A stretch of 64,000 nt of DNA. Source: an uncultured Candidatus Saccharibacteria bacterium (GTDB lineage Bacteria > Patescibacteriota > Minisyncoccia > Phycocordibacterales > JAKAEA01). The number at the start of each line of letters is the position of its first letter. Within the stretch, counting starts at the first letter, position 1. Below, piece by piece: positions 24,131 through 44,790 of the stretch. The translations under genes were made by a program, and so were the position numbers. The notes below the pieces were generated by a model. That model saw nothing but the letters and a program-made list of their open reading frames with translations, did not search any database and was not told where the DNA came from. The stretch is taken from positions 86,163-150,162 of the forward strand of contig CAZNZK010000002.1 in assembly GCA_964577595.1 (NCBI GenBank). The letters are read 5' to 3'.

Positions 24131-24318
24131 TTTTTTATATAAAGAAATACTACTACTATTACCGCTGTGGATATGGTGATATCTCTAAAATAACCTTATT
24201 TTAAGAGCTAATACTATAAGATTCTTTTCCCCACTTCTTCCACACTATCAACAATTTTGTTTTTTGCCAACCTTTATTGATTTTTTATCCCCCACACCTC
24301 CCCACTCTTTCCACAGGT
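24131..24318. promoter_or_regulatory. AT-rich dnaA-dnaN intergenic region with a DnaA-box-like site (candidate oriC part / DUE)
   Basis: tgtggatat at 24166-24174 (8/9 match to TGTGGATAA), flanked by AT-rich sequence. Confidence 0.35.
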
Positions 24319-25665: not shown

Positions 25666-25795
25666 ATTGGAGATAAAATAAAAATAAATTCAAGATGAAA
25701 TTTTTCTTATTATACGCTTCGTAGCCCGTGCCGGAACTTGTGGAAGGTGTAAACTCATGTTGATAATTTGTGGATAACATGATATTCTGCCTGGC
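25666..25795. promoter_or_regulatory. dnaA / rpmH divergent promoter region with DnaA boxes
   Basis: Perfect DnaA box tgtggataa at 25769-25777. Near-box tgtggaagg at 25738-25746. Confidence 0.5.
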
Positions 25796-26274: not shown

Positions 26275-27002
26275 GCCACGGTTTTTTCGCCACTATTTTT
26301 TATATTCCACTCTACAACGCACTTATCTTGTGCGTGAATTTTCTTTCTTGGCACAATGCTGGCCTAGCAGTGATAATACTCACGCTTATTATTCGTTTTG
26401 TTCTCTTCCCGCTCTCTCGCTCCGCCATCAAAACCCAGTTGCAAATGAAGCAGATAGAGCCGGAGCTGAAAAAAATCCGCGATACGGTTAAGGATAAGCA
26501 AGAACAGGCTCGGCTTACTATGCAGGTATATAAAGAGCGCGGCGTTAATCCTTTTTCAAGTATTCTTCTCCTGCTCATCCAGTTGCCCATTCTTATTGCC
26601 CTCTATCAGGTTTTTCGCAGTGGTTTGCCTAAGATTGATCCAACCATTCTCTACTCTTTTGTGGCGGCTCCAGGTGCGTTGAGTATGCATTTTCTCGGCA
26701 TCAACTTGCTTGGCAACAGTGTCATTTTGGCCTTATTTGCCATCGCCACGCAGTTTTTTCAGCTTCAGCTTGCTTTGCCGAAGGTGGAAAAAGCCAAAGA
26801 GCGCTCTTTTCAGAACGATTTGGCCTATAGCATGAATGCTCAAATGAAATATATCTTCCCTCTTATTTTGTTTCCTGTTGCTTATATCTCGCCGGTTATT
26901 GCACTCTACCTTACAGCGAGCAACGCTTTTATGATTCTTCAGGAGTTGTTTGTGCGCCGGCGTTTAGCGGCCGCTTTAGAGGCGAAGAGCCCACAACGAT
27001 AA
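26271..27002 (+). CDS. yidC: Membrane protein insertase YidC (short Gram-positive-like form)
   Basis: WHNAGLAVIILTLIIRFVLFPL with conserved TM core. The ATG overlaps the rnpA stop (ATGA). Confidence 0.85.
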   Translation: MSHGFFATIFYIPLYNALILCVNFLSWHNAGLAVIILTLIIRFVLFPLSRSAIKTQLQMKQIEPELKKIRDTVKDKQEQARLTMQVYKERGVNPFSSILLLLIQLPILIALYQVFRSGLPKIDPTILYSFVAAPGALSMHFLGINLLGNSVILALFAIATQFFQLQLALPKVEKAKERSFQNDLAYSMNAQMKYIFPLILFPVAYISPVIALYLTASNAFMILQELFVRRRLAAALEAKSPQR

Positions 27003-28217
27003 ATCGCTCTTATTGGTGAAAATTAAATAGTCGTCCTTCGGCGAGGCCGTGAGGTTCTCCACGTCAATTGCTTGGCCGGCCTGCTTGCTTACATTGGCCA
27101 CCGTGCTTACTTGGCCGGTATTGGCATCAACGCGGACAATACTGTCAGAGAAAGAAACTAATCCTTGATACCAGGCGTCTGGGTAGTGTCCTCCCGGAAT
27201 GCCTTGCGGCATAGCGCAGTAGAGCACGCCTTTCTGTACTTGTGACCAGGCACATTTGTCGGCGATAGTGTTTATCCCGAGCGCTTCGCTACTACCTGTT
27301 TTACTATTTAAGATCGAAAGCGTTGGTGTGTTTTCAGAATACGCGACAAAATTTGTACTCGGGTCAACATTTATTACTAAGCCGGGAATGTCGCCCAAAA
27401 TGCGCTTTACGGTGCCTGTAGTAGAAAGGAAATAAAGATAGCCACGAGCTACGCTTGCCGGCTTGGTGCTGAGGGCGATAGTGCTGGCGGCCGGCCATTG
27501 CACGTTCCAATCACTAATTGCGGAGGTAAAAATAGTGCTGGCTTTAGTACCACTGCCGCTGGCGATTTTACCCGTGACACCGTCGGCGCTGGTAGTGAGA
27601 TAGAAAATCTGGGTTTGGGCTGGGTTGGCGACTACTGTTTCTATGTTGTCTGGGAGAAAACTGCCGGAGATAATAGGAAGGGTTGAAGTTGTTGTGCTGG
27701 TTTTTTTCTGGGTGATCAGGGTGGCACTATATGTTTTTATAGTTGATTCTTTACTGTCTAAGTAGCGTAAAAGTGTTGTGCTGGCGCCGAGCCACAACGA
27801 GCTGTAAATTTCCGGAATAGTTTGGTCGGAAATGGGAGTGATGGCCACTGTGCTGGAGGTGGCCAGAGCAATAGAATACATGTGACCAGTAGCGCGGTCG
27901 GTTAATTGTACAAACTCCCCCGCTTTGGAACTTGTAACGCCGGCGCCGGCAATTGGCGAAGCATAAAGGTGGGTTAGCGTTTGAATAGTGACCGTTGTTG
28001 CTGCTACGGATGTGCTTGTAGTGCCGGTTGTTTGACCAGGTGAAACCGTTTGATTGCCACCAGAAACAACAGGGAATGGTTGGTAGCCGGTAGGGTTGGT
28101 CCCCTGCCCGTTCGTGCTTCCCGGTGTGGCGCTCTGGCGGAAAAAGAGTAGGTACCCTGCTATTCCTGCCGCTATCAGGAAGAACACTACTGCGCCGATG
28201 AGAATTTTTTTTGTCAT
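26976..28217 (-). CDS. Hypothetical membrane-anchored extracellular protein (last gene of the T4SS-like operon)
   Basis: N-terminal TM helix, then a Thr/Ser-rich beta-rich domain. It overlaps the yidC 3' end convergently. Confidence 0.45.
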   Translation of the reverse strand: MTKKILIGAVVFFLIAAGIAGYLLFFRQSATPGSTNGQGTNPTGYQPFPVVSGGNQTVSPGQTTGTTSTSVAATTVTIQTLTHLYASPIAGAGVTSSKAGEFVQLTDRATGHMYSIALATSSTVAITPISDQTIPEIYSSLWLGASTTLLRYLDSKESTIKTYSATLITQKKTSTTTSTLPIISGSFLPDNIETVVANPAQTQIFYLTTSADGVTGKIASGSGTKASTIFTSAISDWNVQWPAASTIALSTKPASVARGYLYFLSTTGTVKRILGDIPGLVINVDPSTNFVAYSENTPTLSILNSKTGSSEALGINTIADKCAWSQVQKGVLYCAMPQGIPGGHYPDAWYQGLVSFSDSIVRVDANTGQVSTVANVSKQAGQAIDVENLTASPKDDYLIFTNKSDLSLWALRL

Positions 28218-28234
28218 GGTGGTTGGTAAGTAAT

Positions 28235-28708
28235 TTAGACGTTTGTTTGTACTGCTGCCTGGTTAATTTGATCAAGCACATTACCATTGTTGGTTGAGCT
28301 GTCCCCAGCTTGAGTGGGCGATAATGTTGAGTTTGTAGAGTTTACTTGGGTAAACGGATTATTCAGGAGGCTGGGATTGATGGTGGTAATAAGAATATAT
28401 GAAAAAGCCAGTAAAAGAAGGCCAACAATGGTGCGCTGAATAATTTTAGTGCCTTCTTTTTGTTTATCCACGTTCCCTGGGCTTGTGAGGCGCACGATGC
28501 CACCCCACACAATAAAGAAAACCGCTAACACGATGCCGAGGGAAATAAGCACTTCGGCCATAGTGGTGATGTAGGCAATCGGATTACTGGTATCAATATT
28601 GGTTAGTGTTGTGTTGGACTGACCGGGCAGTGGTGTTAAAAGCTGATAGCAATTAAAGTCGCTTGTGCCGCTTGTTGGATTGCAGTTTTGGTTGGTAGTA
28701 GCGGCCAT
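28235..28708 (-). CDS. VirB2/TrbC-like pilin candidate (two hydrophobic helices)
   Basis: 157 aa. Two long hydrophobic segments (VLISLGIVLAVFFIVWGGIV and IVGLLLLAFSYILITTI) after a polar leader. Located in the T4SS-like operon. Confidence 0.4.
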   Translation of the reverse strand: MAATTNQNCNPTSGTSDFNCYQLLTPLPGQSNTTLTNIDTSNPIAYITTMAEVLISLGIVLAVFFIVWGGIVRLTSPGNVDKQKEGTKIIQRTIVGLLLLAFSYILITTINPSLLNNPFTQVNSTNSTLSPTQAGDSSTNNGNVLDQINQAAVQTNV

Positions 28709-28711
28709 ATG

Positions 28712-29710
28712 TTATTGACTAACCGCAGTAAAGCCTACACTTACGCCAACATTGCCCGTTTGAAACGGTTTGGCGCTATTAGTGGCCGTTACCGCAACAC
28801 TGGAAGTACCGCTTTGGTTCGCGGGGGGAGCCACCACTAAAACTTGGCCAGTTTGGCTGGTGACGGACGTGCTGTTTATACTCCACTGGAACGTTGCGGT
28901 ATTGGTGTAGGGTGAGGTGCTATCAAAAAAGTAGGGTGTGGCATTAAAGCCCGTTTGGCCCGCCAGGGAGAGTGCAGAGCCAAGGGCTTTATTGAGCAGG
29001 GTGCCGTAAAGAGGGCTCTCTTGGTAGAGAATAACGTTTGGATTGGTGCCGGTGAGCGTAATGCTGTTTTGGGCCGTTAAAGAGCCATCAGCCGATCGGG
29101 CTGTGACTGAGAGGTTAATTGGCTTTAAAAGGATACTGCCAGTAAGTGTGATGGTATTTTTTCCACTGCCGGAGACGTCGGGCATGGCGCCGCCATCAAG
29201 TTGCCAGGTGTAGACCGCATTTTTGGGATTGGTGAGGGCAAAAGTGGGCATGGCCGTAACCGTAATGGTTCCTTGAAATGGAAAAAGTGCTTTGCCTAAA
29301 TAAAAAGGTGGCACATACGAGTGTGCTTGCCACAAAAGATCTACGCCAGCAGGGACAATGGTTGCACTCTGGGTAATGACCGCTCCTTTTGTTGTGGTTA
29401 CTGTAGCGGTCACCGTTGAATGAGAACCTGTTGTACCAGTGGTCATTTGAAACGAGGCCTGCCCCACCCCACTTGCTTGACGAGTGCCGTTAACCGTCCA
29501 AACGATAGTGGCCACATTCAAGTCGTCTTGATAATCCTGCAAAGTAAAACTCACATTCGTGCCCGGCGCTGGGTATTGTGGTGACACAGTCATGCTTAAG
29601 CCGCCCTGGCCAAGTGAGGAAAGCGCGCTAAAATCAACGCTTTGAGCGAGAGCATGCGCGGGAGATAAAAAAGTAAGCGCCGCTACAACCATAAGAGCTG
29701 TCCTTTTCAT
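28712..29710 (-). CDS. Secreted repeat protein (signal peptide, Ig-like beta-rich repeats)
   Basis: Signal peptide MKRTALMVVAALTFLSPAHALA, then Thr/Ser/Gly-rich repeated beta segments. Confidence 0.45.
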   Translation of the reverse strand: MKRTALMVVAALTFLSPAHALAQSVDFSALSSLGQGGLSMTVSPQYPAPGTNVSFTLQDYQDDLNVATIVWTVNGTRQASGVGQASFQMTTGTTGSHSTVTATVTTTKGAVITQSATIVPAGVDLLWQAHSYVPPFYLGKALFPFQGTITVTAMPTFALTNPKNAVYTWQLDGGAMPDVSGSGKNTITLTGSILLKPINLSVTARSADGSLTAQNSITLTGTNPNVILYQESPLYGTLLNKALGSALSLAGQTGFNATPYFFDSTSPYTNTATFQWSINSTSVTSQTGQVLVVAPPANQSGTSSVAVTATNSAKPFQTGNVGVSVGFTAVSQ

Positions 29711-29747
29711 AGCTCTATTTTAGCATATTGACACCCCCCACAACTGT

Positions 29748-30122
29748 TTAAATGGAGTAATCTAAATGGTTCTGTTGTTGTAGCCACGCTCCGTATTCTT
29801 TAAGTTGCGTATGATATCTGGCGCGCGCAGCCGCATATACTGCAAGCACATCTACTACCCAGCCTAAAATATCAGCATATGGTATAAGACCAACAATAAA
29901 TCCTAGAACATAGCCAGCAATCACACCTTTCGTGTATTTAACGCCGATAATTTTGTACCAGAAACCAAAAATAGCGCCAATAAAAAAATCACCAACCCCA
30001 CTCGCTACCCAACCTGCAAAGGGAAGAAAATCTACGCCGAATTGGATCAGATCCACCAATACTGCAAACATAAGCAAGAGCGTCAGCATCCCTTTACTGA
30101 TAGGCATCTTAGGTTTCTGCAT
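29748..30122 (-). CDS. Small polytopic membrane protein
   Basis: 124 aa with 3-4 hydrophobic segments. It ends 2 nt upstream of the VirB4 fragment. Confidence 0.4.
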   Translation of the reverse strand: MQKPKMPISKGMLTLLLMFAVLVDLIQFGVDFLPFAGWVASGVGDFFIGAIFGFWYKIIGVKYTKGVIAGYVLGFIVGLIPYADILGWVVDVLAVYAAARARYHTQLKEYGAWLQQQNHLDYSI

Positions 30123-30123
30123 G

Positions 30124-31917
30124 TTATTTCAAATCCTCTTTAGCTTTTTTGATGGCGAAAATTTGGGAAGGGTCGGATGTGATGATTTGGTCTTCTGTGT
30201 AGGAGGCGATGACTTTAATGGCGACGTGCTTGAGGCCGGCGAAGAAAATGCCCTCCCCTACGCCGGATTCCAATAAGAGGTATTTCTCCTCATCGGTAAG
30301 GTTGAAGGTTTGCTGGAGTTTGTCTATCGCGGTCGGTGACTGCTTCATTAGGAATTGTATAGAAGAGTTGGTAATAATAGGAATGCCATAAGGCGAACCA
30401 AGGAAATCGCCGACGTCCTGAGTGATAGTGGCGATGCCAAGGTAGTATTTGCGGCCACGTTTCACCAAGCTCATCAAAAATGAAGCCGTGTCTTCGGAGC
30501 GCATCATCCACCAAGCCTCGTCAATTACCAGGAGTCGCTTTTTAATGTTGCGACGAATACTGTTCCAGATGTAATGGGTAACAATATACATGGCAATAGG
30601 CTTGAGTTCATCTTCCATGTCACGCACTGAAAACACCACAAACTTTTTATTAACGTCCACGTTGGAAGGGTTGTTGAGAAAGCCCGCCCAGGTGCCCTTG
30701 GTGTATTTAGTGAGGCGCTGAGCGAGCGAGGCGCCCCCTTCCATGCCGGCAAGCACAAGCTCAAAATCGGAAAGGAGTGGCGGGTCAATGTTAGTGAAAT
30801 TGTTTTCCGGCGTAATATCCTTAAGCGCGTAGGTTTCGCTAATGGCACGGTCAATGATGGCGTCTTCTTCGGGCGTGAGGCCGCCCATCATCAAGCGAAA
30901 GAGGCCAACAAGGTTAATGATGTTGGAGCGCAACACTTCAGCAGGCGACTCGTCGGCAAGTACGGGCGGCAATTCAAAAGGGTTGATATGGTTCTCGGAG
31001 TTGAGGGAAATATTGAAATAGCGCCCGCCGGTCGCTTCGGCAAGGTATTCGTATTCCCTCTCGGGGTCAATGACAATAACTTCAGTATCAAACATAAGCG
31101 TGCGCAGGATTTCCAGCTTGGTGGCATAGCTTTTACCGGCGCCGCTCTTCGCGAAGGTGATGGAGTTGTAGTTTTCCAACGAGAAGCGGTCAAAAAGCAC
31201 CAATGAGGAATTGTGGCGATTAATGCCGTAAAGAATACCTTTGTCACTGGTTAGATCAAAAGAAATGAAGGGAAAAACACTCGCCAGGGTGGACGAATTG
31301 ATTTTTGAATTTACCGCCAGCTCATCATTAGCCAGGGGTAACATGGTACGAAAGCCTGTTTCTTGCTGAAAAAGGGCTGGCTTCACATAGATAAGCTTTG
31401 ATTCTAGGATGGATTTTATTTCGGACTCTATTTTGTCCAACTCGGCTTCAGTTTCGCCGTAGACGGAAATATAGAGGCCGACATCAAAAAGCTTTTCTTG
31501 AGCTTGCTGGAGCGAGTCGCGTAAACCCTCTAAGTCTTGGTACGCGGTATCAAGCATGGGGTCGCGCACCAGGCCTTTTTCCTCGCGCATGGAAATTTGG
31601 CTTTGTACCTCAGCTACTTTTTTCTGGAAGTGGCGCAAAATAGTGGCGGTGTCTATAGGGTGGAAGAAAATGGAGATATCAAAGACGCGATCAAGGTCAA
31701 TGATGGGGGCGAACCAGTCTTCTGAAAGAAAACGTGGATAGGAAATGACGAAGAAGGTGCGCATAATTTTGTCACCAAGCGAGAGCGAGCGCGGGCCTAC
31801 TTTCAGGGCCGACGGCGCTAAAATGTCTTTAAATTCAAGGTTGGAGGCGCGGTACAGCTCGGCGGGCAGGGCGACGCTCGTGGCTAATTTTTCTGTTTTT
31901 TTGCCAAATCCAAACAT
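30124..31917 (-). CDS. VirB4/TrsE/PrgJ-family T4SS ATPase, C-terminal (ATPase) part; frame-split from the N-terminal part
   Basis: Walker A FAKSGAGKSY, Walker B LLVIDEAWWM, and an Arg-finger region. The ATG at 31915-31917 lies 1 nt from the upstream fragment's stop. Confidence 0.8.
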   Translation of the reverse strand: MFGFGKKTEKLATSVALPAELYRASNLEFKDILAPSALKVGPRSLSLGDKIMRTFFVISYPRFLSEDWFAPIIDLDRVFDISIFFHPIDTATILRHFQKKVAEVQSQISMREEKGLVRDPMLDTAYQDLEGLRDSLQQAQEKLFDVGLYISVYGETEAELDKIESEIKSILESKLIYVKPALFQQETGFRTMLPLANDELAVNSKINSSTLASVFPFISFDLTSDKGILYGINRHNSSLVLFDRFSLENYNSITFAKSGAGKSYATKLEILRTLMFDTEVIVIDPEREYEYLAEATGGRYFNISLNSENHINPFELPPVLADESPAEVLRSNIINLVGLFRLMMGGLTPEEDAIIDRAISETYALKDITPENNFTNIDPPLLSDFELVLAGMEGGASLAQRLTKYTKGTWAGFLNNPSNVDVNKKFVVFSVRDMEDELKPIAMYIVTHYIWNSIRRNIKKRLLVIDEAWWMMRSEDTASFLMSLVKRGRKYYLGIATITQDVGDFLGSPYGIPIITNSSIQFLMKQSPTAIDKLQQTFNLTDEEKYLLLESGVGEGIFFAGLKHVAIKVIASYTEDQIITSDPSQIFAIKKAKEDLK

Positions 31918-31918
31918 A

Positions 31919-32560
31919 TTAATTGCTTAATTTAATTGGTTTTTCTGTTTCTCCAGGGTTGAAGAGCTTGTAGAACAGCTCGGTGATTTCCTCGGGGCCG
32001 AGCTCGGCGGCCCGCAGGCCACAGCGCGTCAAGCCACCTTCTACCACCGCCACCCGCTCCTCAAGCTGTACACGGTGCTCTTCAAATGCTTCAGCGTCAT
32101 TTTTAGCTTTTTCGGCCACAGTTTTTCTGCCAAAACTAAAGAAGCGGCCGGCTGACTTGCTGTTCAGTGTTGCTGGCGTGTATGGGATCACAATAAAAAA
32201 ACTCTTACTCATAATATTGTGTGTCTCGGTAAAATCTTTGACGAAGCCGATATATTCTTGAATTTGTACCTTCATAAGGTCGTCCACCTGCTCTTTAAGG
32301 CGCTGGTCGAGAAGGGCCAGGTAGGGCCGGATATCAAGTTTGCGCGATTGGACAAAAATTTGAATGGAAAAATCCAGCGAGTTCAGGAGGTTTTGAAATT
32401 GGTAGAGAATGGCCTGCTGTTCATCTGGCGATTTAAGGGCGAAGTTGAGAGAAGAAACAAAAAGGATAGCTCGCAAAGAGCCATCCTTCAGAATGGCGGC
32501 TGTATCACGGATTTCTTGGATAGGAACAAATTCTTGAGTTGGTTTGCCGAGAGTGGCCAT
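31919..32560 (-). CDS. VirB4/TrsE/PrgJ-family T4SS ATPase, N-terminal domain fragment
   Basis: FVPIQEIRDTAAILKDGSLRAILFVSSLNFALKSPDEQQAILYQFQNLLNSL follows the N-domain pattern of Gram-positive VirB4 homologues. The two fragments together total about 810 aa. Confidence 0.7.
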   Translation of the reverse strand: MATLGKPTQEFVPIQEIRDTAAILKDGSLRAILFVSSLNFALKSPDEQQAILYQFQNLLNSLDFSIQIFVQSRKLDIRPYLALLDQRLKEQVDDLMKVQIQEYIGFVKDFTETHNIMSKSFFIVIPYTPATLNSKSAGRFFSFGRKTVAEKAKNDAEAFEEHRVQLEERVAVVEGGLTRCGLRAAELGPEEITELFYKLFNPGETEKPIKLSN

Positions 32561-32613
32561 GCCGCTATTGTAGCATTTTTATCCAGCACCACTCAGTTTT
32601 TAGCTCAAAAGCG

Positions 32614-33051
32614 CTACTTTGTATTTGTCCTGGCATCGCTCGTTACGGGGTTTTCCGCCTGGCGCACGTCTAAAGTCCAGGCCAAATCCTTCAACTTGCT
32701 GTCGCCGAGCTTTGGAATGAATGAGGTTGGCATTTCTGTTTCATTTTCCGCTGTTGGCAGAGCCACATTCTGTTCCTCCTTGTGCCAGATGTAGAGCTTG
32801 GGGTGGAGTGTGTAGTTGAACCATGATTCCATAGCGAATATAAAAGGCCGATTATTGATTTTATAGAAAGCTAAAGCCAGAGAAAATCCCAGAATTACTA
32901 AAATTGGCACAGTAAAAAGATACCAGGGCAAAAAAAGATATAGAGCAATAGAGGCGCCAATACCGCCAGCCACGTAAATAAATTGCTTTAGGGTGAGTGG
33001 CCCGAAGATTTTATCCTCAACCTCAATGAATTGTGGTACTTGGTAACGCAT
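32614..33051 (-). CDS. PrgI/VirB3-like small membrane protein
   Basis: QFIEVEDKIFGPLTLKQFIYVAGGIGASIALYLF is the typical PrgI-family N-terminus plus a TM hairpin. It sits immediately upstream of VirB4. Confidence 0.55.
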   Translation of the reverse strand: MRYQVPQFIEVEDKIFGPLTLKQFIYVAGGIGASIALYLFLPWYLFTVPILVILGFSLALAFYKINNRPFIFAMESWFNYTLHPKLYIWHKEEQNVALPTAENETEMPTSFIPKLGDSKLKDLAWTLDVRQAENPVTSDARTNTK

Positions 33052-33068
33052 GTGTGCTTATTATAGCA

Positions 33069-33986
33069 CTACGGTAAGGGCTGTTCGCGATAGGGGTCAT
33101 AACCTTTTGGGTATGGTTTGGGTTGTTGTGTCGTTGACGGAATGGGTGGAGGTGTCGGCTTGGGCGGAATAGATGGGGTTGGTGTGGGTGGTGGCGTCAT
33201 CAGCACCTCTTTTTGCGGAATGTTCACCGGTCGGGCGAGCTTTGCCAACTCAATCGGCCCCTCATATTTTTCCAATACGGGCAGGTTGGGTGGTGGCGGG
33301 GCAGTTTTTATCGGAGTGACGGGGATTGCGGGGGTTTGAGTAGTGGAAGCTACGGGGGTTGGGGCGGTGGGATTAGTGACGACGGAGGTTTTCGTCGCGG
33401 CACTTGCGGCGGCCCGTTCCCCTGCCGTGGCCATACTTTGGTTGCCCAAGCTATCTAGTTTTTTAATGAATGAATCCGCCGTCGGTGTGTCTTTTAGTTT
33501 ATTCAATTCAATTTGCGAACGTGGCAATACCGACGTGTAGCTGGACGCCGGTTTCTCCACTCCATTTCCGTAATTGGGAAGCCCCACGAATTTTCGCACT
33601 TCGCCCGCTGGACGTGGTTGGATGGCTTGAGATGTTTTGAGTGGAGTTGGCGATTTCTCATCTATTTCTTTCATTGCTTGATTGTAAAGATCGTAGGCCT
33701 TAAGCATTATTTTGTCCCCCACTTCTCCAAACAACCGCCCCGCCTCCTCTTTAGAAAAATCAAATTTTTCCTGAGCCGAAGCAATAAAATTATCCGCAGA
33801 AGCCATCGCTACCAACAAGGCAAATACACCACGTCGGAACTCTCTTTTGTCTGATTCGTCGGTTAGAGAAAAAGCGTTAGCCACATCTTGGAGCTTTTCC
33901 ATAACTTCGTCGCTCAGAATATAGTCCTGAACAGTGGGGGGTACTCCCTCAAACGCCTTTTGCAATTGTTCGTTGGTGTAGTTCAT
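33069..33986 (-). CDS. Hypothetical protein with a proline-rich C-terminus
   Basis: 305 aa. The C-terminal third is Pro/Thr-rich (PPPPNLP...PPTPTPSIPPKPTPPPIP). Confidence 0.45.
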   Translation of the reverse strand: MNYTNEQLQKAFEGVPPTVQDYILSDEVMEKLQDVANAFSLTDESDKREFRRGVFALLVAMASADNFIASAQEKFDFSKEEAGRLFGEVGDKIMLKAYDLYNQAMKEIDEKSPTPLKTSQAIQPRPAGEVRKFVGLPNYGNGVEKPASSYTSVLPRSQIELNKLKDTPTADSFIKKLDSLGNQSMATAGERAAASAATKTSVVTNPTAPTPVASTTQTPAIPVTPIKTAPPPPNLPVLEKYEGPIELAKLARPVNIPQKEVLMTPPPTPTPSIPPKPTPPPIPSTTQQPKPYPKGYDPYREQPLP

Positions 33987-33989
33987 GTA

Positions 33990-36551
33990 TTAACGTGTTG
34001 ACTGTGGTGGTGTGGGTGGATTCTGAATAGGGGGCGGTTGTACTGGGGGTGGCTGTACTGGCGGAATTGGCCCAGCGGTTGCTTTGATTGGAGGAACTCT
34101 TACGGGGGTCTGTTGTGTCTCCTTCAAATCATATTCTCCCTTACTGTCGAGGCTTCCTATTATTTGCTGTGGTCCTTGATTTTTGTCTTGATCGGCAGAT
34201 TTCTTCCGTACTTCTGTGGGGGGCACGGGTGTTTTTTCAGTGTCCTGGGGTTTTGGAGTTTGTGTTTTCGCTCCCGCTTGGGTTTTTTGAAGCGCTTTAC
34301 GGTCTGCCTCGCTAAGATCCTTAGACTTCAAGAAGTTCTTCTGAACGTGTTCGGGCAGATATTTAAAGCCACCTCTCTGGGCATCTTTGGGTAGTTTTGA
34401 AAGGTCTTTATCGGGTACGCTTTCAATCGCTGCTTGGATACCCGCTTCATCCCCGGCGGCAATTGCGTCTCTAATGTTGTCGGCATATCCTTCAGTTCTT
34501 TCCTTGTCTTCCGCTCCCTTATCCGCGGCCTTTTCTTTCGTTAAGAAACGATCAACAGCACCCTCAACGGAAGCTTTGTGCATACCACTCACCAAACTCA
34601 CTCTAGTGGAGTGGTCGGCCCAGTGAGTTAATAGGCCAGTTTGACCAGCTTTCCTTTCATTATCACGTATCTTTTCGGTTTTCTTGATATCAGTTTCAGT
34701 ATCTCTAACGCTCTTGGATAGTGCGTCTCTCTTGTCGCGATATATTTTTCTTGCGGCCTGCTTCGCAATTTGTCTTTCTTGTTCAGTAAGATTTCTTTCT
34801 TGTCCTGTTTGTTGGTCAACAACTTTCTGCCCAGCCAGTTTATTGTTCAATCTCTCCTCGGATATTTCCTGTGCCGTGGCTATATGCTTAGCTAGCTCAA
34901 GTCTTGTCGCAGACAATTTACTCTTTGAGTTCTGGAGATCTTCCATAGTTTTCTGTGTCGCCGCTCCGCCCTTTTTCGCGTACTCAACAAGCTCTTTTTC
35001 TTCAGCTTCAACACGGGTTCTATACCCACCCTCCACGCCCTTATTAACCGTGAGACCGGCTTTGGTGCTCAAATTTTGGAAAGTCTTGGTGTTGCGAAGG
35101 TCGCCACTAGCGTCTCTAACGGCAGTTGCTCTCTTGTCTAATTGTCTGCCAATGGCGCGTGTTACGAAGTTGTTGGATGTTCTCATGCCCCGAATTTTCT
35201 CGCCAAATTGACTACCATCGCCGGTAAGTTTTTCAGCAGCCGCGCCCACGGTGCCGCGGTATGCTTTTCCACCTAGAGCCGCGGCGCCATTTACTGCAAA
35301 TCCGGAAATTTTATTCACGGCCTTCCCCACCAACGCATTGCCGTAGGAAGCGGCGGTGACGGCAAGGTAGAGGGCGGCAACCATGAGGCCGATGATAGTG
35401 AGGAAGAAGAGAATTTGATCCACACCTGTGCCACTAGTAAGGACGGTAGCAAAACTATTCGAGGCGGCCACCTGACCATTAGGTGCGAGGAGGCTGTTAA
35501 CCAAGTTGGTCACTTGAAATCCTCTATTAATCAAAAGTGCCACAAACCAAATGAGCAACATATACACAATTCCAAAAGTCAGTTGGCCAGCAAGCATTCG
35601 CCACCATTTTGAGGCGTTTTCTTGTGTGCTGGGTAGAGCAAAAAATAAAAAGGCCAGAGGCGAAAGAACCATGAGAAATATAAGGAGAATGAAGCGTGTT
35701 AGGAATAATATGGCTACGGCGCCGAAGGTGACAGCAGTAATTAGAAGAAAAATAGAGCCACCAATACCGACAAGAAGGATGGTGCCGAAGCTTAGGTTGG
35801 ACAAACTAGTGATGGCACTTGCGGAACTGGAGGCGCCTGCTTGAGAGAATGCATAAATAGTGCTCAACCCTAAAGGTTTGGCAAAGACGGTAGTAAAAGA
35901 ATCTGGCGTATGTAGGCCGTTGATGGTAGTGACCGTGGCGCCACTGCTGTGAAGGGTTAAATTATAGAATGCGAGAGTAAAAATGTTGGACCCATCAATA
36001 AGTAGTTTTGTGAAGAATAAACTGAAGTTCACCAAAAGGGCGACAATAATGAGGTTACGAATGATTCGCTTCGTGTCGTCGCCACCCTGACCAATGATTG
36101 TCTTTATGGCAACGTAAATTGCCATAAAAATGAAAACAATATTACCAAGACTTCGCACGTCAGCCCAAAGCGTATTGATTATTGAAGAACTTCCTAAATT
36201 TGCCATTAGATTGACCACGGTGACTCTCAGTACTTCGTCAAAAAGCGAGCCAACCAGGGTGACAATCCAACTACTTATAAAGAGTCCTGTGTAAGCAGAT
36301 CTGGCGAGCGATTGGCTGATTATGTCCCGCAAAGAAGCGAGAATTGATTGATCGACGCTATTAGCGACTGCTTGTACAGGATTTGGGAGGAGTGCTCCCA
36401 AAGGGCCAGTGGCCGCGGCTAAGGCTGCTCCCGTAAGTGTTGGGCCTTGTTGCGCATGCGCGGTTAGAGGTGTTGTGATAGAAGAAAAAACCGTTATTAC
36501 AACGAAACATAAAAGTGTACCCAGAATAATTTTAGAAGTAATCAGTCGCAT
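33990..36551 (-). CDS. VirB6/TrbL-like polytopic membrane protein with a long coiled-coil and proline-rich C-terminal region
   Basis: Signal/TM N-terminus, at least 6 TM helices in the first 400 aa, then a charged coiled-coil region and a PPxQPPP tail. Confidence 0.55.
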   Translation of the reverse strand: MRLITSKIILGTLLCFVVITVFSSITTPLTAHAQQGPTLTGAALAAATGPLGALLPNPVQAVANSVDQSILASLRDIISQSLARSAYTGLFISSWIVTLVGSLFDEVLRVTVVNLMANLGSSSIINTLWADVRSLGNIVFIFMAIYVAIKTIIGQGGDDTKRIIRNLIIVALLVNFSLFFTKLLIDGSNIFTLAFYNLTLHSSGATVTTINGLHTPDSFTTVFAKPLGLSTIYAFSQAGASSSASAITSLSNLSFGTILLVGIGGSIFLLITAVTFGAVAILFLTRFILLIFLMVLSPLAFLFFALPSTQENASKWWRMLAGQLTFGIVYMLLIWFVALLINRGFQVTNLVNSLLAPNGQVAASNSFATVLTSGTGVDQILFFLTIIGLMVAALYLAVTAASYGNALVGKAVNKISGFAVNGAAALGGKAYRGTVGAAAEKLTGDGSQFGEKIRGMRTSNNFVTRAIGRQLDKRATAVRDASGDLRNTKTFQNLSTKAGLTVNKGVEGGYRTRVEAEEKELVEYAKKGGAATQKTMEDLQNSKSKLSATRLELAKHIATAQEISEERLNNKLAGQKVVDQQTGQERNLTEQERQIAKQAARKIYRDKRDALSKSVRDTETDIKKTEKIRDNERKAGQTGLLTHWADHSTRVSLVSGMHKASVEGAVDRFLTKEKAADKGAEDKERTEGYADNIRDAIAAGDEAGIQAAIESVPDKDLSKLPKDAQRGGFKYLPEHVQKNFLKSKDLSEADRKALQKTQAGAKTQTPKPQDTEKTPVPPTEVRKKSADQDKNQGPQQIIGSLDSKGEYDLKETQQTPVRVPPIKATAGPIPPVQPPPVQPPPIQNPPTPPQSTR

Positions 36552-36553
36552 GT

Positions 36554-38701
36554 TTATTGAGCGTATGGCGCTGAAGGCGTGGCGGATGTTGCCGCGCTGG
36601 CGCCACTTATGGCCTCAACCGTGCGGCTGGCGCTGCTGACAACGCCATAAGGATCGGTGGCGGTGTAGGTGATGGTGTACTGCTGGCCGTTGGCAAGGGT
36701 GGTACCGGGGTCAACGATACTCGTGCCGCTACTGTACGAAACCGTGATAGGAGTGCTTGAACCTGTGGCATCAACGGCAGTGGCTCCCGCATCGTAGGTG
36801 CTGAGCGGCTGACCAACGGAGCCAATAATGGAGGGTTGACCGTTCATGGTAATGGTTGGGCCATTGTCTTCAAATACCTGTACTTCCGCCAGTTGGAGCG
36901 AGCCTACTGTTACTCCCTGAATAGTCACATAGCGGCCAGAGACAGCTTGCGGCAAAATGAGCGTGTAGGGATTTCCCGCAATAGTAGGCATTACTGGAAT
37001 GCCGGCCAGGGCGCTATCCCAAACCACCGAGTTGTTTTGATCGCTGACGACTACTTTGAATGTGGCTGGCACATTGCTAACACCGGGGCCAAGATCCCAG
37101 CCGTCACCAGAGGAGATGTTGTGTGGGTATATGACTATCTTGAAGAGGTTATCGGTTTGTTGGCCAAGGTCTATTACGAAGGAACCTTTTTGCGAAGATG
37201 GCGAGGTGATGGCACCACTCCACGTGCCGCCGTGTCCGCTTTCGCCGCCCATTGCAGTGTTGCCGTCGGTAAGGTTGGCCGCATCGTATGTGGGGCGGGC
37301 CGTCGGTGAAGCAGTAACCATTTTCCCTTGGGTGACGTTGGTGGAGCCGCCAGTGGTGCCAGGTGTCTGATTAATGGTTTGTGTGCCGACATTTTGCAAC
37401 TGAGTGGTTGTAGTGTTTTCTTCAGCCTGAGAAATAGCCGTTTCTGCCGTAGAGCTAGCCTGGGCTTCAGCGGCTATTTGCGCCCATACTCCCGAGCTTA
37501 CTCCCCCGCCGCCACCTCCCGCTGAAGCAATTCCGCCCGCGCCTAAGCCTAAAGCGCCCAACCCTGTTTTAAGAAGCTCATTGAAAAGCGCGTTGAAGAT
37601 TTTATCCAAGTCATCGGCGACGCCAAGCTGGTCGGCGGGCACATTCAGTTGATTTTGCAGGGTGTCGGCAATGGTTTTGCCGGGCGTTGTGATGGTGCAG
37701 GAGTCGCTGGCAGGGTCGGAAGAAATGTCGTTCCCAAGAGAATCTCTTCCAATTACTGTTGAGCCGGCACTGGCATTTGCGGGCGCTTTCGTGCCCGAGC
37801 CAACGGTTGCGGAAACAGATACCCCATTTCCTCCCGGTTTCACGTATTTATAGGTTACAGGATCAGCGTGACTCGGGTATTCTGTGTGCGTGCAGTCTTG
37901 TTGTGATAAAAAGCCGCTACCCCAATTTAATTGGGATGAAACAGTATTAACCTGATCAACGATTTGGTTCTCTATACTATTTACCGACGATAAAAAAGCG
38001 CCATACGGGTTGCTTTGATCATTCATGGCTGTAGCCAAAAAACTTCCCCAGTCTTGAAAATTACTCGGGTCGCTTTCAGCATTGGCGGTTGCACAAATAT
38101 TACTGGAACCGGAAGATGATTGAGACTGAGAAACGTCGCCTCCGCCGCCAGTGCCGCTGACATTTAGATTGATACCAAAATTCGCGGCCAGGCCGGCGAG
38201 CAGTTGTGCTTTAAAGGGGCTACATATATTGACGCCGATACCGTTGTTGATGCCGGCAAGTGCTCCGGCGACAACTTGGTCGCCAATATTTTGGAACATC
38301 TTCCCCGGATCGCCCACAAAAGCCGCCGAGCCGTGGAAGCCGCTATTAATGTAACTGACGATTTGGTTGGTCATTTGCGTAAGGAGCATTTTGCCGATCA
38401 TAAGCGCTAAGCCGTGCTCGATACAGTCTTTGAAAAAATTTTGCAGGCCATTGCCGGCGGAAATCATTTGGCTGCTTATTTGGCCGTTTGCTCCTATCGG
38501 CACACCCATGATTGCCGCCTGCGCTTGCATAGTGATGGAAGTGGCCGCCGCTGTTGCATAACCACTGATACAGCCGGAAACTGTCGCCTGGGCGGTCGGT
38601 GGTGGTATAAAAGCAAAAACACTTGGAACGGCAACGGCAATTGCCAGCACTATCGCCAGCAATTTTTGTCCCACTGTTTTGTTAGTATAAAAAAAGTTCA
38701 T
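36554..38701 (-). CDS. Large secreted/surface protein with an F5/8 type C (discoidin)-like domain
   Basis: N-terminal signal-anchor, a Gly/Ser-rich region, and a discoidin-like segment (TYDAANLTDGNTAMGGESGHGGTWSGA...GRYVTIQGV...LAEVQVFED). Confidence 0.55.
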   Translation of the reverse strand: MNFFYTNKTVGQKLLAIVLAIAVAVPSVFAFIPPPTAQATVSGCISGYATAAATSITMQAQAAIMGVPIGANGQISSQMISAGNGLQNFFKDCIEHGLALMIGKMLLTQMTNQIVSYINSGFHGSAAFVGDPGKMFQNIGDQVVAGALAGINNGIGVNICSPFKAQLLAGLAANFGINLNVSGTGGGGDVSQSQSSSGSSNICATANAESDPSNFQDWGSFLATAMNDQSNPYGAFLSSVNSIENQIVDQVNTVSSQLNWGSGFLSQQDCTHTEYPSHADPVTYKYVKPGGNGVSVSATVGSGTKAPANASAGSTVIGRDSLGNDISSDPASDSCTITTPGKTIADTLQNQLNVPADQLGVADDLDKIFNALFNELLKTGLGALGLGAGGIASAGGGGGGVSSGVWAQIAAEAQASSTAETAISQAEENTTTTQLQNVGTQTINQTPGTTGGSTNVTQGKMVTASPTARPTYDAANLTDGNTAMGGESGHGGTWSGAITSPSSQKGSFVIDLGQQTDNLFKIVIYPHNISSGDGWDLGPGVSNVPATFKVVVSDQNNSVVWDSALAGIPVMPTIAGNPYTLILPQAVSGRYVTIQGVTVGSLQLAEVQVFEDNGPTITMNGQPSIIGSVGQPLSTYDAGATAVDATGSSTPITVSYSSGTSIVDPGTTLANGQQYTITYTATDPYGVVSSASRTVEAISGASAATSATPSAPYAQ

Positions 38702-39612
38702 TGCGTGGATGCGGCTATGAATCTGTATCCCGGTTCTGTGGGGCCGAAGGTGATGCCGTTTTTGGCAAAAAGCGGGCCGAGGGCGGAAATGTCGTTATAA
38801 ATGGCGGGCGCGACTTGCTCGTAATTTTGCACCGCTGAGACGGTAAAAACCGGATCGGTGAAAAGTTTCTGCATGCCTTCCACGGAATTTTCAGCTTGGC
38901 TAAAATCGTTAAGTATTGCTAAATGCAGAGCCGCCACTGATGATGGAACTGGCACCGTCGACAATCCTTTTATGATGCCACTATACGACTTCGTTATTAT
39001 AGCAAGATTGGCCAAATCGTCGGGATTACCACTGTTGACAGCCGCTTGGAGAATGTCTAGTTCATTGAGATTTTGCGGGACACTGTTGCGGGCAACAACG
39101 GCACCGACGGCATTGCCATACGCGTGGAAAGCCGCCGCCGAAGTGTTATTGATTACAACAATGTCGGCAATGGTAAAGACTTTTGCTTGCGGAATATGGT
39201 TGGTAACGTCGCCGTTTTGAATGAGGTTGGGAATGAGCGAGCTTTCTTCATCGGGGGTGAGGGTTTGGCCCGACTGCTTCATGGTCATGTATTGATTGAT
39301 GAATTCTTGGGAAAGGGCCTCAGTTGCGGTTAAAGGCTTTGCGGCTGTGGCTATGCTGTTGCCTGAGCCAGTGCTTGTGGTTGTGTCCGCGGGTGAGGAA
39401 GTCGCTAACGCCATAAGTTGGCTTTGGATTTTTTGGTATACAGCATCGGCGAGGCCGGTGGTATTGACCACGTTAAGGTTGGTTAAGGCCTGCTGGTGTG
39501 CGGCTGCTTGTGGATTATAAAAAAGAATCACCATAACTAAGCCGATGCTTACAACACAAACAGCCAGAATAGGCAAAATCTTCCTCGACGGCGCTGGCGG
39601 GCGGCGGCTCAT
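38698..39612 (-). CDS. Hypothetical membrane-anchored protein (first gene of the T4SS-like operon)
   Basis: N-terminal TM anchor. Its ATGA overlaps the downstream gene. Confidence 0.45.
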   Translation of the reverse strand: MSRRPPAPSRKILPILAVCVVSIGLVMVILFYNPQAAAHQQALTNLNVVNTTGLADAVYQKIQSQLMALATSSPADTTTSTGSGNSIATAAKPLTATEALSQEFINQYMTMKQSGQTLTPDEESSLIPNLIQNGDVTNHIPQAKVFTIADIVVINNTSAAAFHAYGNAVGAVVARNSVPQNLNELDILQAAVNSGNPDDLANLAIITKSYSGIIKGLSTVPVPSSVAALHLAILNDFSQAENSVEGMQKLFTDPVFTVSAVQNYEQVAPAIYNDISALGPLFAKNGITFGPTEPGYRFIAASTQ

Positions 39613-39630
39613 GGGGTTATTATATCATAC

Positions 39631-40461
39631 GTGCATAAGGGAATTTTTTTGGCGGCGGCGGTTTTAGCAAGTTCTTTCTGGGGCCAGTTTTGGCCCTGGG
39701 CGAGCGCGCCAGTTGTTGTTTCTGTTGACCCTCTGGCGGCATATAGGGTGGCCACAGGTAGTGTGGATGTATATTCAACCGATAGAAAAATCGTGGGAAT
39801 TCAAAATTCTATCTACACTTCGATCAATACTGCGTTGGTTTATAGGCAGGCACCTCAAATTCATCCCCCAGCATATGCCCAAACGCTAGGAAATGGCGTT
39901 CTTGTTAAGAGTTTGAGCGTTCAAAGCGGTTTGCCGGGGGTAAATGTAAATGTCGTTGCTCTTAATTTGCAGACATCTTCCGCGAACAGCGTTTATTTTG
40001 AAGCTTCGTCTACTGGTCAAGTTTTTGTAGTCAAAAACTTAAAGCCTTCAGCCGGTGGTATTCTTTCTTTTACTCTTCCCTCTTTTCCCGTTGGTCGCTA
40101 CGATGTTGCTATTAGTAACAGCTCTGGTATGAGTAATACGGCTTTTTTTGTCGTACGAGCGCCAACCAGTCCAAAAGTCACGGTTATTTCAGTTTTGCCG
40201 GCAAAAGTTCGTTGGGGTGGCACGCTCGTGATTTCCGGCAGCGGCTTCACCGCTACTGGTAACGAGGTTATTACCGCATTTGATACAATCTTCAATGTGC
40301 CGTCGCCAGATGGCCGAACGCTCGTTGTGCATATTACGCCGGAGCAAATGCGGGTTGCGGCAAGTATGGGTTCCGGAGCTATCTCTATTCCTGATACTAT
40401 AGAAGTGGTGAACAATAATGGCTATACGCCAGCGGCTAAAAACTTTTCAGTGAGTATATGA
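39631..40461 (+). CDS. Secreted protein with an IPT/TIG-like domain
   Basis: Signal peptide, then VISGSGFTATGNEV (IPT-like). Confidence 0.45.
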   Translation: MHKGIFLAAAVLASSFWGQFWPWASAPVVVSVDPLAAYRVATGSVDVYSTDRKIVGIQNSIYTSINTALVYRQAPQIHPPAYAQTLGNGVLVKSLSVQSGLPGVNVNVVALNLQTSSANSVYFEASSTGQVFVVKNLKPSAGGILSFTLPSFPVGRYDVAISNSSGMSNTAFFVVRAPTSPKVTVISVLPAKVRWGGTLVISGSGFTATGNEVITAFDTIFNVPSPDGRTLVVHITPEQMRVAASMGSGAISIPDTIEVVNNNGYTPAAKNFSVSI

Positions 40462-40865
40462 AAAAAAGTCTACTATTTTTTGTCAGTCTCTTGGTTGGTG
40501 GTATTGGGCTTCTGACCCCCCTTTCGCTTCTCGCTTCGGCGTTGCCTTTTTTTGGTGGCTTTGACGTTGTTAATATACCGTGCACCTGCGCCCCCGCTCT
40601 CAGTTGGGATTTTTTTATAGCACTTCATTATAGTGTATCCTCTGCCGGTCCTATCATTCCCACAACAGGCTATACTGCAGGGGCTTTCGCCGCTCCTGTA
40701 ACTCCCGTACTATTTTCTAATTACTACATTCGGCCAGAAACGTGGGTGCTGGGAACATATACTCAAGGAGCGGGAGTTTGTCTTATTGGTGTTGAACCCT
40801 ATTGTGTTTATATGCCCAATTATGGGCTCATAACTCCGGAGACAGGCGTGTCGCCGACGATATAG
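40458..40865 (+). CDS. Small secreted cysteine-containing protein
   Basis: 135 aa with a signal peptide (MKKSLLFFVSLLVGGIGLL) and 5 Cys. Confidence 0.35.
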   Translation: MKKSLLFFVSLLVGGIGLLTPLSLLASALPFFGGFDVVNIPCTCAPALSWDFFIALHYSVSSAGPIIPTTGYTAGAFAAPVTPVLFSNYYIRPETWVLGTYTQGAGVCLIGVEPYCVYMPNYGLITPETGVSPTI

Positions 40866-43824: not shown

Positions 43825-44790
43825 GTGACATATAGAACGGCACTTTTTTTTGCCCTTGCTTTTATTGCTATTGCCGCTAGCTCTAAGCCTTCGCCTGCCC
43901 AAGCGAGCTTCTTTTCCGATATTGGCCTCTTTTTTACTAAGCCAGTTACGTCGCCATCGGTGGCAAGTGTGGCGTCGCAACAAGTGCCCATTTTACAGGC
44001 GCCGCAAAATAGTGGCAGTAAAGTGCTCGGTACAACCACTCGTTCTGTTGATGTTCCCGCCGAGTCGAGTGTTCAAGTAGTTCTGCCTGCCGCCTTCTCC
44101 CCTGTTTCCACCACTACCACCTCGGTGTATGTCGTTGTTTCCGGGGACAATCTTCTCAGTATCGCTAAACATTTTGGTTTAAGTGTTTCTGCGGTGAAGG
44201 GAGCTAACAATCTTACCACGAATAGCATAAAAATCGGTCAAAAACTTTTTATTCCGGTCGTCGGGTCGGTCGCGCCGAAAGCTACGGGCTCTTCGCAGGT
44301 CAAAGACGCGGTTTCCTACTCCGCGCAGGCGGCCACAATTTCCGATACTGCTCCGGCATCCGCTGTTAAAATTCCAACCGAACCCATCATAATAGCGCCG
44401 GCCGTCACAAAGATTTTTTCTCCCGACGGCTATTATTTGCGACCTATTATCGGTGGCCTCAAAACCCAAGGCATTCATGGCCATAATGCGGTTGACTTAG
44501 CTGAAGACTGCGGCACGCCGATATATGCTTCAGCTACTGGCACGGTTGCCACAGCCGATGCTACGGGGTGGAACGGCGGTTATGGCGGCTATGTGAAAAT
44601 AAATCACTCCAACGGCTCAGAGACGCTCTATGCACACATGGAAACACTTATGGTTGCGGCTGGCCAAAGCGTGGCTCAGGGTCAGCAGATAGGGGCTATT
44701 GGTCACACTGGTGAAGTTGATAAGGAGGGCGGCACGGGGTGTCATGTGCATTTTGAGATTCGTAATAACGGCTACGCTAATCCGTTTTAA
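43825..44790 (+). CDS. LysM-domain M23 family metallopeptidase
   Basis: Signal peptide, LysM (VVSGDNLLSIAKHFGLS), and M23 motifs HNAVDL and HVHFEI. Confidence 0.85.
   Translation: MTYRTALFFALAFIAIAASSKPSPAQASFFSDIGLFFTKPVTSPSVASVASQQVPILQAPQNSGSKVLGTTTRSVDVPAESSVQVVLPAAFSPVSTTTTSVYVVVSGDNLLSIAKHFGLSVSAVKGANNLTTNSIKIGQKLFIPVVGSVAPKATGSSQVKDAVSYSAQAATISDTAPASAVKIPTEPIIIAPAVTKIFSPDGYYLRPIIGGLKTQGIHGHNAVDLAEDCGTPIYASATGTVATADATGWNGGYGGYVKINHSNGSETLYAHMETLMVAAGQSVAQGQQIGAIGHTGEVDKEGGTGCHVHFEIRNNGYANPF

Follow-up and report, generated by a model that had tools for sequence, protein, structure and literature searches.

A probable Patescibacteria-clade type IV secretion system beside the replication origin of a Paceibacteria-type genome

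In a 64-kb stretch of contig CAZNZK010000002.1 (positions 86,163 to 150,162, forward strand; assembly GCA_964577595.1, deposited as an uncultured Candidatus Saccharibacteria bacterium), hereafter the window, eleven minus-strand genes encode what is very probably (we would say about 85%) a chromosomal, vertically inherited type IV secretion system (T4SS) of the Patescibacteria clade, derived from the MPF-FATA conjugation machinery of monoderm bacteria and set, in the Paceibacteria arrangement, beside the replication origin (oriC). The core lies in one packed operon: a two-part VirB4, a PrgI/VirB3 protein, an extended VirB6 and one VirB2-like pilin, together with six accessory families or gene slots. 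Four of the accessory proteins are membrane-anchored or secreted: the lectin/immunoglobulin (Ig) adhesin-like g2, the Ig-repeat protein g9, the propeller-like g11 and the bitopic g1. An earlier note made from the DNA letters had read the cluster as a Gram-positive-style, non-conjugative T4SS-like machine of the kind inferred in episymbiotic bacteria belonging to the candidate phyla radiation (CPR). This reading is borne out by protein families above curated thresholds, by the lack of a coupling protein or relaxase in the window and by the Patescibacteria relatives of VirB4. Both the system and the absence of conjugation genes from it had appeared in print between 2023 and 2025, in genomics as in essentiality: the window copy is an ordinary member and its novelty is low. 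The genes, g1 to g11 in operon order, are the following (coordinates here and below are positions in the window; lengths in amino acids, aa):

38698..39612, minus strand: g1, 304 aa, first operon gene; bitopic membrane protein with a transmembrane (TM) segment at residues 12-30 (hydropathy)
36554..38701, minus strand: g2, 715 aa, signal-anchored candidate surface adhesin; N-terminal module followed by a discoidin/F-type-lectin-like and Ig-like C-terminal region
33990..36551, minus strand: g3, 853 aa, extended VirB6/TrbL-like polytopic protein (TrbL matches in homologues, fold)
33069..33986, minus strand: g4, 305 aa, soluble protein with neither TM segment nor signal peptide; Pro/Thr-rich C-terminal tail
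32614..33051, minus strand: g5, 145 aa, PrgI/VirB3-like protein with two TM segments (PF12666)
31919..32560, minus strand: g6, 213 aa, TrsD/TraD-like, the VirB4 N-terminal domain as a gene of its own (weak NCBIfam matches, PF26593, synteny)
30124..31917, minus strand: g7, 597 aa, VirB4-family ATPase, the C-terminal two thirds of a canonical VirB4 (NCBIfam, Pfam, PDB)
29748..30122, minus strand: g8, 124 aa, small and membrane-embedded, about three TM segments
28712..29710, minus strand: g9, 332 aa, secreted triple Ig-like repeat protein; signal peptide, repeats of about 100 aa
28235..28708, minus strand: g10, 157 aa, VirB2-like T4SS pilin (PF18895)
26976..28217, minus strand: g11, 413 aa, N-terminally anchored, last operon gene; weak propeller signals in its family

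The listing of open reading frames (ORFs) holds exactly eleven on the minus strand from 39612 down to 26976, with gaps of -4 to +53 nt, and a second, independent gene prediction, made on a different assembly of this genome (L083), gives the same 11 + 2 proteins (the two being the plus-strand neighbours described below) at equal lengths; the eleven packed or overlapping genes of the earlier note are therefore real. We call the operon from this tight packing, because consensus promoter and terminator scans returned site numbers at or below shuffled-sequence expectation and were uninformative.

The g7 protein passes the curated cutoff of the NCBIfam family conju_CD1110 (370.9 bits, cutoff 325; model positions 180-733 of 752), it also matches P-loop_TraG (8e-25), VirB4_CagE (1e-33) and TraC-F (1e-51), and among solved structures it finds the VirB4 chain 4ag5 (2e-38) and TrwK of R388 (5e-9). 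Its Walker A (GAGKS) and Walker B (VIDEAW) motifs, read from the translation, are intact: a VirB4-family ATPase with intact nucleotide-binding motifs, by which a T4SS is generally recognised, is present. The family had been named correctly in the earlier note, as one gene; in fact, a TrsD-like N-terminal domain is encoded separately by g6. This gene is recognised from weak NCBIfam matches (VirB4_plasma, 1.3e-9, positions 104-233; VirB4_CagE, positions 7-164; TrsD, 5.7e-4) and from PF26593 (TraC-like), found in the precomputed Pfam annotation of an identical protein. For comparison, each window protein was searched by tblastn against 43 related loci of at least 20 kb from different GTDB species: g6 has a counterpart in all of them (62% identity, 205-230 aa), directly upstream of virB4 each time. 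The g6/g7 junction reads TAA-t-ATG, so the two genes are in different frames. Breakage of VirB4 by a frameshift, or its decay to a pseudogene, is ruled out: 43/43 full-length loci have a separate TrsD-like gene (205-230 aa) and a VirB4 gene of 597-641 aa, which makes the split the native form, and more than 8000 g7 homologues are about 600 aa long. TrsD and VirB4 as two genes are also known from pGO1 (Quinonero-Coronel et al. 2025, PMC12102498).

The relatives of g7 suggest where the system belongs. Among the best 120 listed of its more than 8000 homologues, identities are 79-92% and the named sources are all Patescibacteria, Parcubacteria or Paceibacterota; names among these listed relatives also include Taylorbacteria and Zambryskibacteria, and some bulk-submitted metagenome-assembled genomes bear the title Saccharibacteria. 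The top species representative shares 86% identity with g7. Outside the CPR, the best relatives are VirB4 proteins of monoderms, 28-36% identical (CD1110 family; plasmids of Streptomyces, Bacillales and Clostridium). Taken as a proxy for a phylogeny, relatives and identities are consistent with the Patescibacteria VirB4 clade, and the genome is of the Parcubacteria/Paceibacteria type.

The other core subunits were identified with varying directness. The PrgI/VirB3 assignment of g5 passes the curated cutoff of PF12666 (38.8 bits, cutoff 27), as the earlier note had it; its TM segments span residues 24-42 and 44-62, it is found in 43/43 loci at 51% identity, and it is predicted to anchor VirB4 to the membrane. 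In g3, residues 1-420 form a polytopic domain followed by a charged, hydrophilic tail of about 430 aa with a proline-rich end. The protein itself matches neither Pfam nor PDB sequences, and the VirB6 assignment is therefore drawn from homologues and fold: 8/39 homologues match TrbL (PF04610, best 1.9e-7) and 2 match TrbL_4, and when an AlphaFold model of residues 1-460 (predicted local distance difference test, pLDDT, 74.6) is compared by Foldseek, the three best matches are all chains from the stalk complex of R388 (probability 0.91-0.99, E ~0.08), the best natural-protein match being TrwI. A homologue lies near virB4 in 43/43 loci, as expected of a VirB6/TrbL protein, and we accept g3 as an 'extended VirB6'. 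The earlier VirB6-like call stands on these grounds; its 850-aa extension does not, 853 aa being the length of the whole protein.

The two-helix pilin candidate is likewise supported: g10 passes the cutoff of PF18895 (T4SS_pilin; 30.2 bits, cutoff 26.6), with two hydrophobic helices around a basic loop, and tblastn finds a homologue at the same position in 29/43 loci. A custom hidden Markov model search of the window for more pilin genes recovered g10 only. This pilin is unusual, and here the window adds a little to the published picture: (i), g10 has no signal peptide, while one can be recognised in almost all of its 29 syntenic homologues; (ii), most of these run 100-300 residues past helix 2 and g10 ends about 40 residues past it, lacking in particular the ~390-aa C-terminal extension of its two nearest relatives (543 and 533 aa, with Cys-rich repeats). 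Its start coincides exactly with the mature-end motif NCYQLLTPLPG, neither Lys nor Arg occurs among the first 48 residues, and its ATG is in the same frame as the upstream g9, with only TAA-CAT between them. The protein may be inserted by N-tail translocation, it may be made by read-through as a g9 fusion, or it may be a defective pilin.

Synteny indicates that this is a resident locus. The earlier note had proposed that conservation in related genomes be checked, and the cluster proves conserved in 43/43 loci, all with the same order and strand: ksgA, g1, g2, VirB6, g4, PrgI, TrsD, VirB4, g8, g9, pilin, g11, yidC, rnpA, dnaA, dnaN. VirB6, PrgI, TrsD, VirB4, g9, g11, yidC and dnaA are detected in all 43, dnaN in 42, ksgA and g2 in 39, g1 in 31 and the pilin in 29. 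The same order recurs on contigs of up to 1.0 Mb. Identity falls from 79% for VirB4 through 62% for TrsD and 51% for PrgI to 24-33% for the extracellular proteins. Because gene order is the same in 43/43 full-length loci of other species, we regard the cluster as a vertically inherited core locus rather than an integrated element.

The surroundings match as well. The operon sits between ksgA and yidC-rnpA, with dnaA-dnaN just past these (rnpA-yidC on the plus strand, dnaA-dnaN on the minus strand): of these, dnaA, dnaN, rnpA and ksgA beside the cluster are the neighbourhood of the Paceibacteria arrangement. DnaA boxes at 25758-25777 and 24166-24174, and a sign change of the GC skew at about 23-27 kb indicate that the cluster abuts oriC. 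The 12.6-kb operon reads toward oriC, an orientation kept in 43/43 related loci; ksgA, uvrD and other genes on through PNPase and an NYN-domain gene to 50.6 kb also read toward the origin. Inferred from GC skew, the operon would be oriented head-on to the rightward replication fork.

No conjugation genes were found among the ORFs scanned in the window. Outside the cluster, every distinct ORF of 130 aa or more was run against Pfam, save out-of-frame ORFs that lie within scanned genes; a 242-aa ORF at 1472-2200 gave no match. The cluster proteins were all run against both Pfam and NCBIfam. The scanned ORFs of the 64-kb window include neither a coupling protein of the VirD4/TcpA type nor a relaxase, a VirB11 or a hydrolase of the VirB1 type, so that an absence first noted for the cluster extends to the window. 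The assignable matches outside the cluster are all housekeeping genes, among them Fpg, PolA, RuvABC, TyrRS, PBP1a, DnaN, DnaA, RnpA, YidC and KsgA, and further UvrD/PcrA, PNPase, CCA-adding enzyme, RNase Y and ClpP. Of the canonical VirB/D4 (MPF-T) set, VirB5, VirB7-VirB11 and VirD4 were not found in the Pfam and NCBIfam scans of the cluster proteins. Since the locus has no coupling ATPase or relaxase, the machine would not conjugate DNA.

This set of features agrees with what has been described for the Patescibacteria. In a survey of 3,035 genomes, VirB4 was found in 2,417, nearly all in one clade within MPF-FATA; its most frequent partner was TrsD, and PrgI/VirB3, VirB6 and VirB2-like pilins (found with PF18895) lay near virB4, with VirD4 homologues mostly far from it (PMC12102498). 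In Paceibacteria, the same survey found the T4SS neighbourhood rich in dnaA, dnaN, rnpA, ksgA and rpmH, read as an origin-proximal dosage effect. The window locus shares with this arrangement its VirB4 relatives, the upstream TrsD-like gene, PrgI/VirB3, VirB6 and the PF18895 pilin, the lack of a relaxase and of a nearby type IV coupling protein (T4CP) in 64 kb, and the neighbours dnaA, dnaN, rnpA and ksgA. It differs in nothing essential; its single pilin has neither signal peptide nor C-terminal extension.

The earlier note called such systems functionally uncharacterised, which is no longer so: transposon sequencing (Tn-seq) found the T4SS cluster and the pilin genes of the Saccharibacteria species Southlakia epibionticum to be essential for epibiotic growth, and coupling and relaxase proteins were noted as missing there too (Wang et al. 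2023, PMC10633639). The Southlakia ML1 locus (SEML1_0006-0019) resembles ours in its monoderm-type subunits, VirB2-like pilins and lack of a recognisable coupling protein or relaxase in the cluster, and its low locus-tag numbers suggest a place near the chromosome start. It belongs, however, to the class Saccharimonadia, has six divergent pilins in an array, where the window has one, and carries peptidase and lysozyme genes directly downstream of virB4, where the window has a LysM-M23 gene 3 kb away; essentiality is known from Southlakia only. Compared with the conjugative MPF-FATA systems (pGO1/pSK41 Trs, pCF10 Prg/Pcf, the C. difficile CTn), the locus has CD1110 as its best VirB4 model, a PrgI-family VirB3, separate TrsD-like and VirB4 genes as in pGO1, and a monoderm envelope without VirB7, VirB9 and VirB10; it differs in a VirB4 identity of 28-36%, in lacking a relaxase, T4CP, PrgB-type adhesin and two-domain VirB1-type hydrolase in the cluster, in having a VirB2-like pilin, which the Gram-positive systems lack, and in being chromosomal, origin-adjacent and vertically inherited. 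From the MPF-T systems (R388 Trw, Agrobacterium VirB) it differs in lacking an outer-membrane core, VirB11 and VirD4, and in the ~430-aa hydrophilic tail of its VirB6. Bordetella Ptl, Brucella VirB and Helicobacter ComB likewise work without coupling protein or relaxase, but these are diderm systems with VirB7-10, a VirB4 unrelated at clade level and known cargo (toxin, effectors, DNA).

The accessory proteins are less readily classified: the window copies of g1, g2, g4, g8, g9 and g11 match nothing above Pfam or NCBIfam cutoffs, and for this reason are probably among the genes left unassigned in the survey (PMC12102498). As six conserved families or gene slots they are a second small addition to the published picture.

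The protein in which the earlier note saw discoidin and Ig domains, g2, has them below threshold in the window copy (F5_F8_type_C, E 1.4e-3; Bact_surface_Ig-like, E 1.4e-4) and clearly in its family: homologues carry PF00754, PF22633 and PF16403, and the family profile matches PDB sequences of fucolectin/discoidin structures (7e-15) and Ig-like domains (6e-9), in the C-terminal domains only. The window C-terminus alone has no significant match among PDB sequences. An N-terminal module with invariant cysteines (residues ~80-400) is shared by 34-39 of 43 loci; the C-terminal part is variable and recurs in only 4. In g9, found in 43/43 loci at 32% identity, Trp residues at 71, 169 and 276 are invariant, and the family profile weakly matches Ig-like capsid decoration proteins (Hoc, 0.006). 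Equally widespread is g11 (43/43 loci, 32% identity over its full length), whose ectodomain is probably a beta-propeller: the window copy has no Pfam match, the family profile weakly matches TolB propellers (0.043), and homologues show scattered DUF5050, DPPIV_N and PD40 matches and, in locus L086, a weak Tricorn_N.

In 31/43 loci, the place of g1 is taken by a homologue with about 24% identity. The g1 ectodomain looks mostly helical by eye, and no Pfam, NCBIfam or PDB-sequence match was found. In 14/32 homologues the membrane anchor is followed by a bacterial TSP3 Ca-binding repeat (DxDGLxDWEE; for example locus L001, 2928-3929), which the window copy has lost. A VirB8/PrgL-like identity for g1 is unlikely given the lack of a PDB sequence match and an ectodomain that by eye is helical, not NTF2-like. 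The soluble g4, whose N-terminal part looks helical by eye, has no Pfam or NCBIfam family match and no tblastn homologue in the 43 loci; its slot, the VirB6-PrgI interval, holds an ORF of 163-599 aa in 43/43. Similarly, g8 has no Pfam or NCBIfam family match, and its slot holds a positional ORF in about 33/43 loci, with the weak common motifs D..Q, IP..G, PKR and LP.WT.

What does the machine do? VirB4 catalyses pilin dislocation from the membrane and pilus assembly, in the R388 structure the site of pilus assembly has VirB6 as its base, and F-type pili are not known to need VirB11 or a coupling protein. Because VirB3, VirB4, VirB6 and VirB2 form the inner-membrane pilus-assembly platform of diderm systems, we propose by analogy that the most likely function here is VirB4-driven assembly of a filament or tube toward the host. 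A VirB4 hexamer would dock on a VirB3/VirB6 platform in the single membrane and spend ATP on drawing pilin out of the bilayer and polymerising it into a pilus or tube of the VirB2 type, which would cross the wall in the direction of the host; wall passage and host glycan recognition could be the tasks of the surface proteins (lectin/Ig, triple-Ig and propeller). What the machine would most likely provide is something these epibionts depend on, a physical contact with the host cell or a conduit to it. According to a 2025 review (PMC12857230), the Patescibacteria have the only T4SSs of monoderms with potential pili of the conjugative type, and in a 2026 preprint tubular structures, which may be T4SS pili, are reported from the interface of epibiont and host.

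Several points weigh against this account. The mechanism is drawn by analogy with other systems, and neither our analysis nor the literature shows a pilus made by this locus, a cargo or a direction of transport. The insertion route of the pilin is uncertain and, since g10 has no signal peptide, the protein could be defective. No VirB8-like or VirB5-like subunit was recognised in the general scans (no search was aimed at either), and the AlphaFold2 model of the g2 N-terminal module (19 sequences, pLDDT 45.6) is too poor for a comparison with the VirB5 fold. Finally, most Patescibacteria genomes have VirD4-like proteins elsewhere (PMC12102498) and 64 kb were examined here, so that a distant T4CP is conceivable.

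An alternative that is possible, if on the doubtful side, has the machine translocate proteins or effectors without a T4CP, as Bordetella Ptl and Brucella VirB do: proteins that are cytoplasmic or have been delivered by Sec would be exported onto the host cell or into it, the pilin forming a short channel only. Protein-secreting T4SSs without T4CP are known (PMC12102498, PMC12857230), and protein export or an alternative capacity is what Wang et al. favour (PMC10633639). Among the proteins of the cluster, several are adhesin-like and either secreted or anchored, and g4, soluble, without signal peptide and inside the operon, could be cargo. Accessory proteins with signal peptides, however, need Sec only, no effector has been identified, and export is not experimentally evidenced in any Patescibacteria. 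Effector export is in any case compatible with pilus assembly and does not exclude it.

DNA uptake, in the manner of Helicobacter ComB or archaeal Ced, with host DNA taken in to supply nucleotides or for transformation, strikes us as improbable. ComB-type systems likewise lack relaxase and T4CP, Patescibacteria are unable to make nucleotides according to the literature, the T4SS of the class ABY1 stands beside comF, recG and radA (PMC12102498), and the window has a ComM-like gene (Mg_chelatase family) at 44798-46345. VirB4 has weak matches to the CedB and CedD models, but similarity to CedB is limited to the ATPase fold (42 bits, cutoff 700). Competence of Southlakia needs type IV pili and ComEC, and deletion of comEC abolishes transformation and not viability (PMC12857230), when the T4SS is essential (PMC10633639): its essential role is thus not ComEC-dependent DNA uptake.

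Synteny, composition and the absence of mobility genes from the window all but rule out an integrated conjugative element or its decayed remnant, with relaxase and coupling protein outside the window or lost: the VirB4, PrgI and TrsD families do derive from monoderm conjugative elements and a tyrosine recombinase gene lies at 51594-52526, but it is 11 kb off among housekeeping genes, with a SAM-like plus catalytic domain layout typical of XerC/D (a candidate identity only), the order from ksgA to yidC/dnaA is unchanged in all 43 species-level loci, VirB4 is 77-92% identical across Patescibacteria (thousands of homologues), the GC content of the cluster (0.47-0.51) equals that of its flanks, neither cluster boundary has a tRNA, the scanned ORFs of the window include neither the relaxase nor the VirD4/TcpA coupling protein that such an element should have, and relaxases occur in only 103/3,035 Patescibacteria genomes, rarely near virB4 (PMC12102498).

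Within the pilus-assembly account, a further and more speculative proposal can be made, to which we give a low likelihood: g2, g9, g11, g1, g4 and g8 might together be a Paceibacteria-specific extracellular T4SS module, with g2 as a VirB5-like glycan-binding adhesin at the pilus tip. The pilin would here be pared to its two-helix core and inserted by N-tail translocation of the 48-residue Lys/Arg-free segment, or via read-through of the single in-frame TAA from g9.

Upstream of the operon lie two plus-strand genes and, further on, a peptidase gene:

39631..40461, plus strand: 276-aa protein with a hydrophobic, signal-like N-terminus, accessory and not core; tblastn homologues in 8/43 loci
40458..40865, plus strand: 135-aa protein with a hydrophobic, signal-like N-terminus, accessory, 4-nt overlap with the preceding gene; homologues in 9-11 of 43 loci
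43825..44790, plus strand: LysM + M23 peptidase (Peptidase_M23 5e-27, LysM 3e-11)

The first two had been said to flank the cluster; both are on one side of it. Neither has a Pfam family match, and the IPT domain seen in the 276-aa protein finds no Pfam support in the window copy, a faint TIG match occurring in one positional homologue. This divergent pair fills its slot in about 16/37 related loci and elsewhere is absent or replaced; we would place it outside the core of the locus. The LysM-M23 gene, rightly located about 3 kb from the cluster in the earlier note, is parted from the operon by uvrD and ksgA and has the same position in loci L085 (3365-4546) and L086 (3988-5025). It belongs to a syntenic block of PNPase, a 364-416-aa protein, a DksA-type zinc finger, a ComM-like gene, LysM-M23 (on the opposite strand), UvrD, KsgA and the T4SS. 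LysM/M23-containing proteins were counted among the Patescibacteria VirB1 homologues in the survey (PMC12102498), and this peptidase, which may be the one so counted for Paceibacteria, is a possible functional stand-in for a VirB1 wall hydrolase. In the same block, the 364-aa ORF at 46791-47885, between PNPase and the DksA/TraR-type zinc-finger gene, has no family and has positional counterparts of 385 aa in L085 and 416 aa in L086.

Other genes of the window deserve mention. A PilB/GspE-type ATPase (14305-16044; T2SSE 3.5e-114, MshEN domain) stands alone between tsaE and ruvB, with no further pilus gene near it in the window; it is a component of type IV pili, not of the T4SS. At 5796-9422, a major facilitator superfamily transporter gene is followed by two HlyD-type membrane-fusion genes (218 and 491 aa), a tripartite-efflux-like arrangement that is unexpected for an organism thought to be single-membraned. 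Four tRNA genes (Arg-TCG, Gly-GCC, Pro-TGG, Gly-TCC) at 55982-58174 are mixed with small ORFs, among them a UPF0102/NERD-like protein (56468-56860) and an unassigned 220-aa protein; the listed ORF of the CCA-adding enzyme shares its 5' end with the tRNA-Arg (55982-56057), and its TTG start is probably too far upstream.

The Patescibacteria T4SS is of biological importance: it is nearly universal in a lineage to which a quarter of bacterial diversity may belong, the one species tested cannot grow epibiotically without it, and it is the only monoderm T4SS known with VirB2-like pilins. The window provides one more instance of this system and a per-gene catalogue for its Paceibacteria arrangement, in which the six accessory families or slots suggest themselves as candidates for the parts that are missing, those that span the wall and recognise the host.

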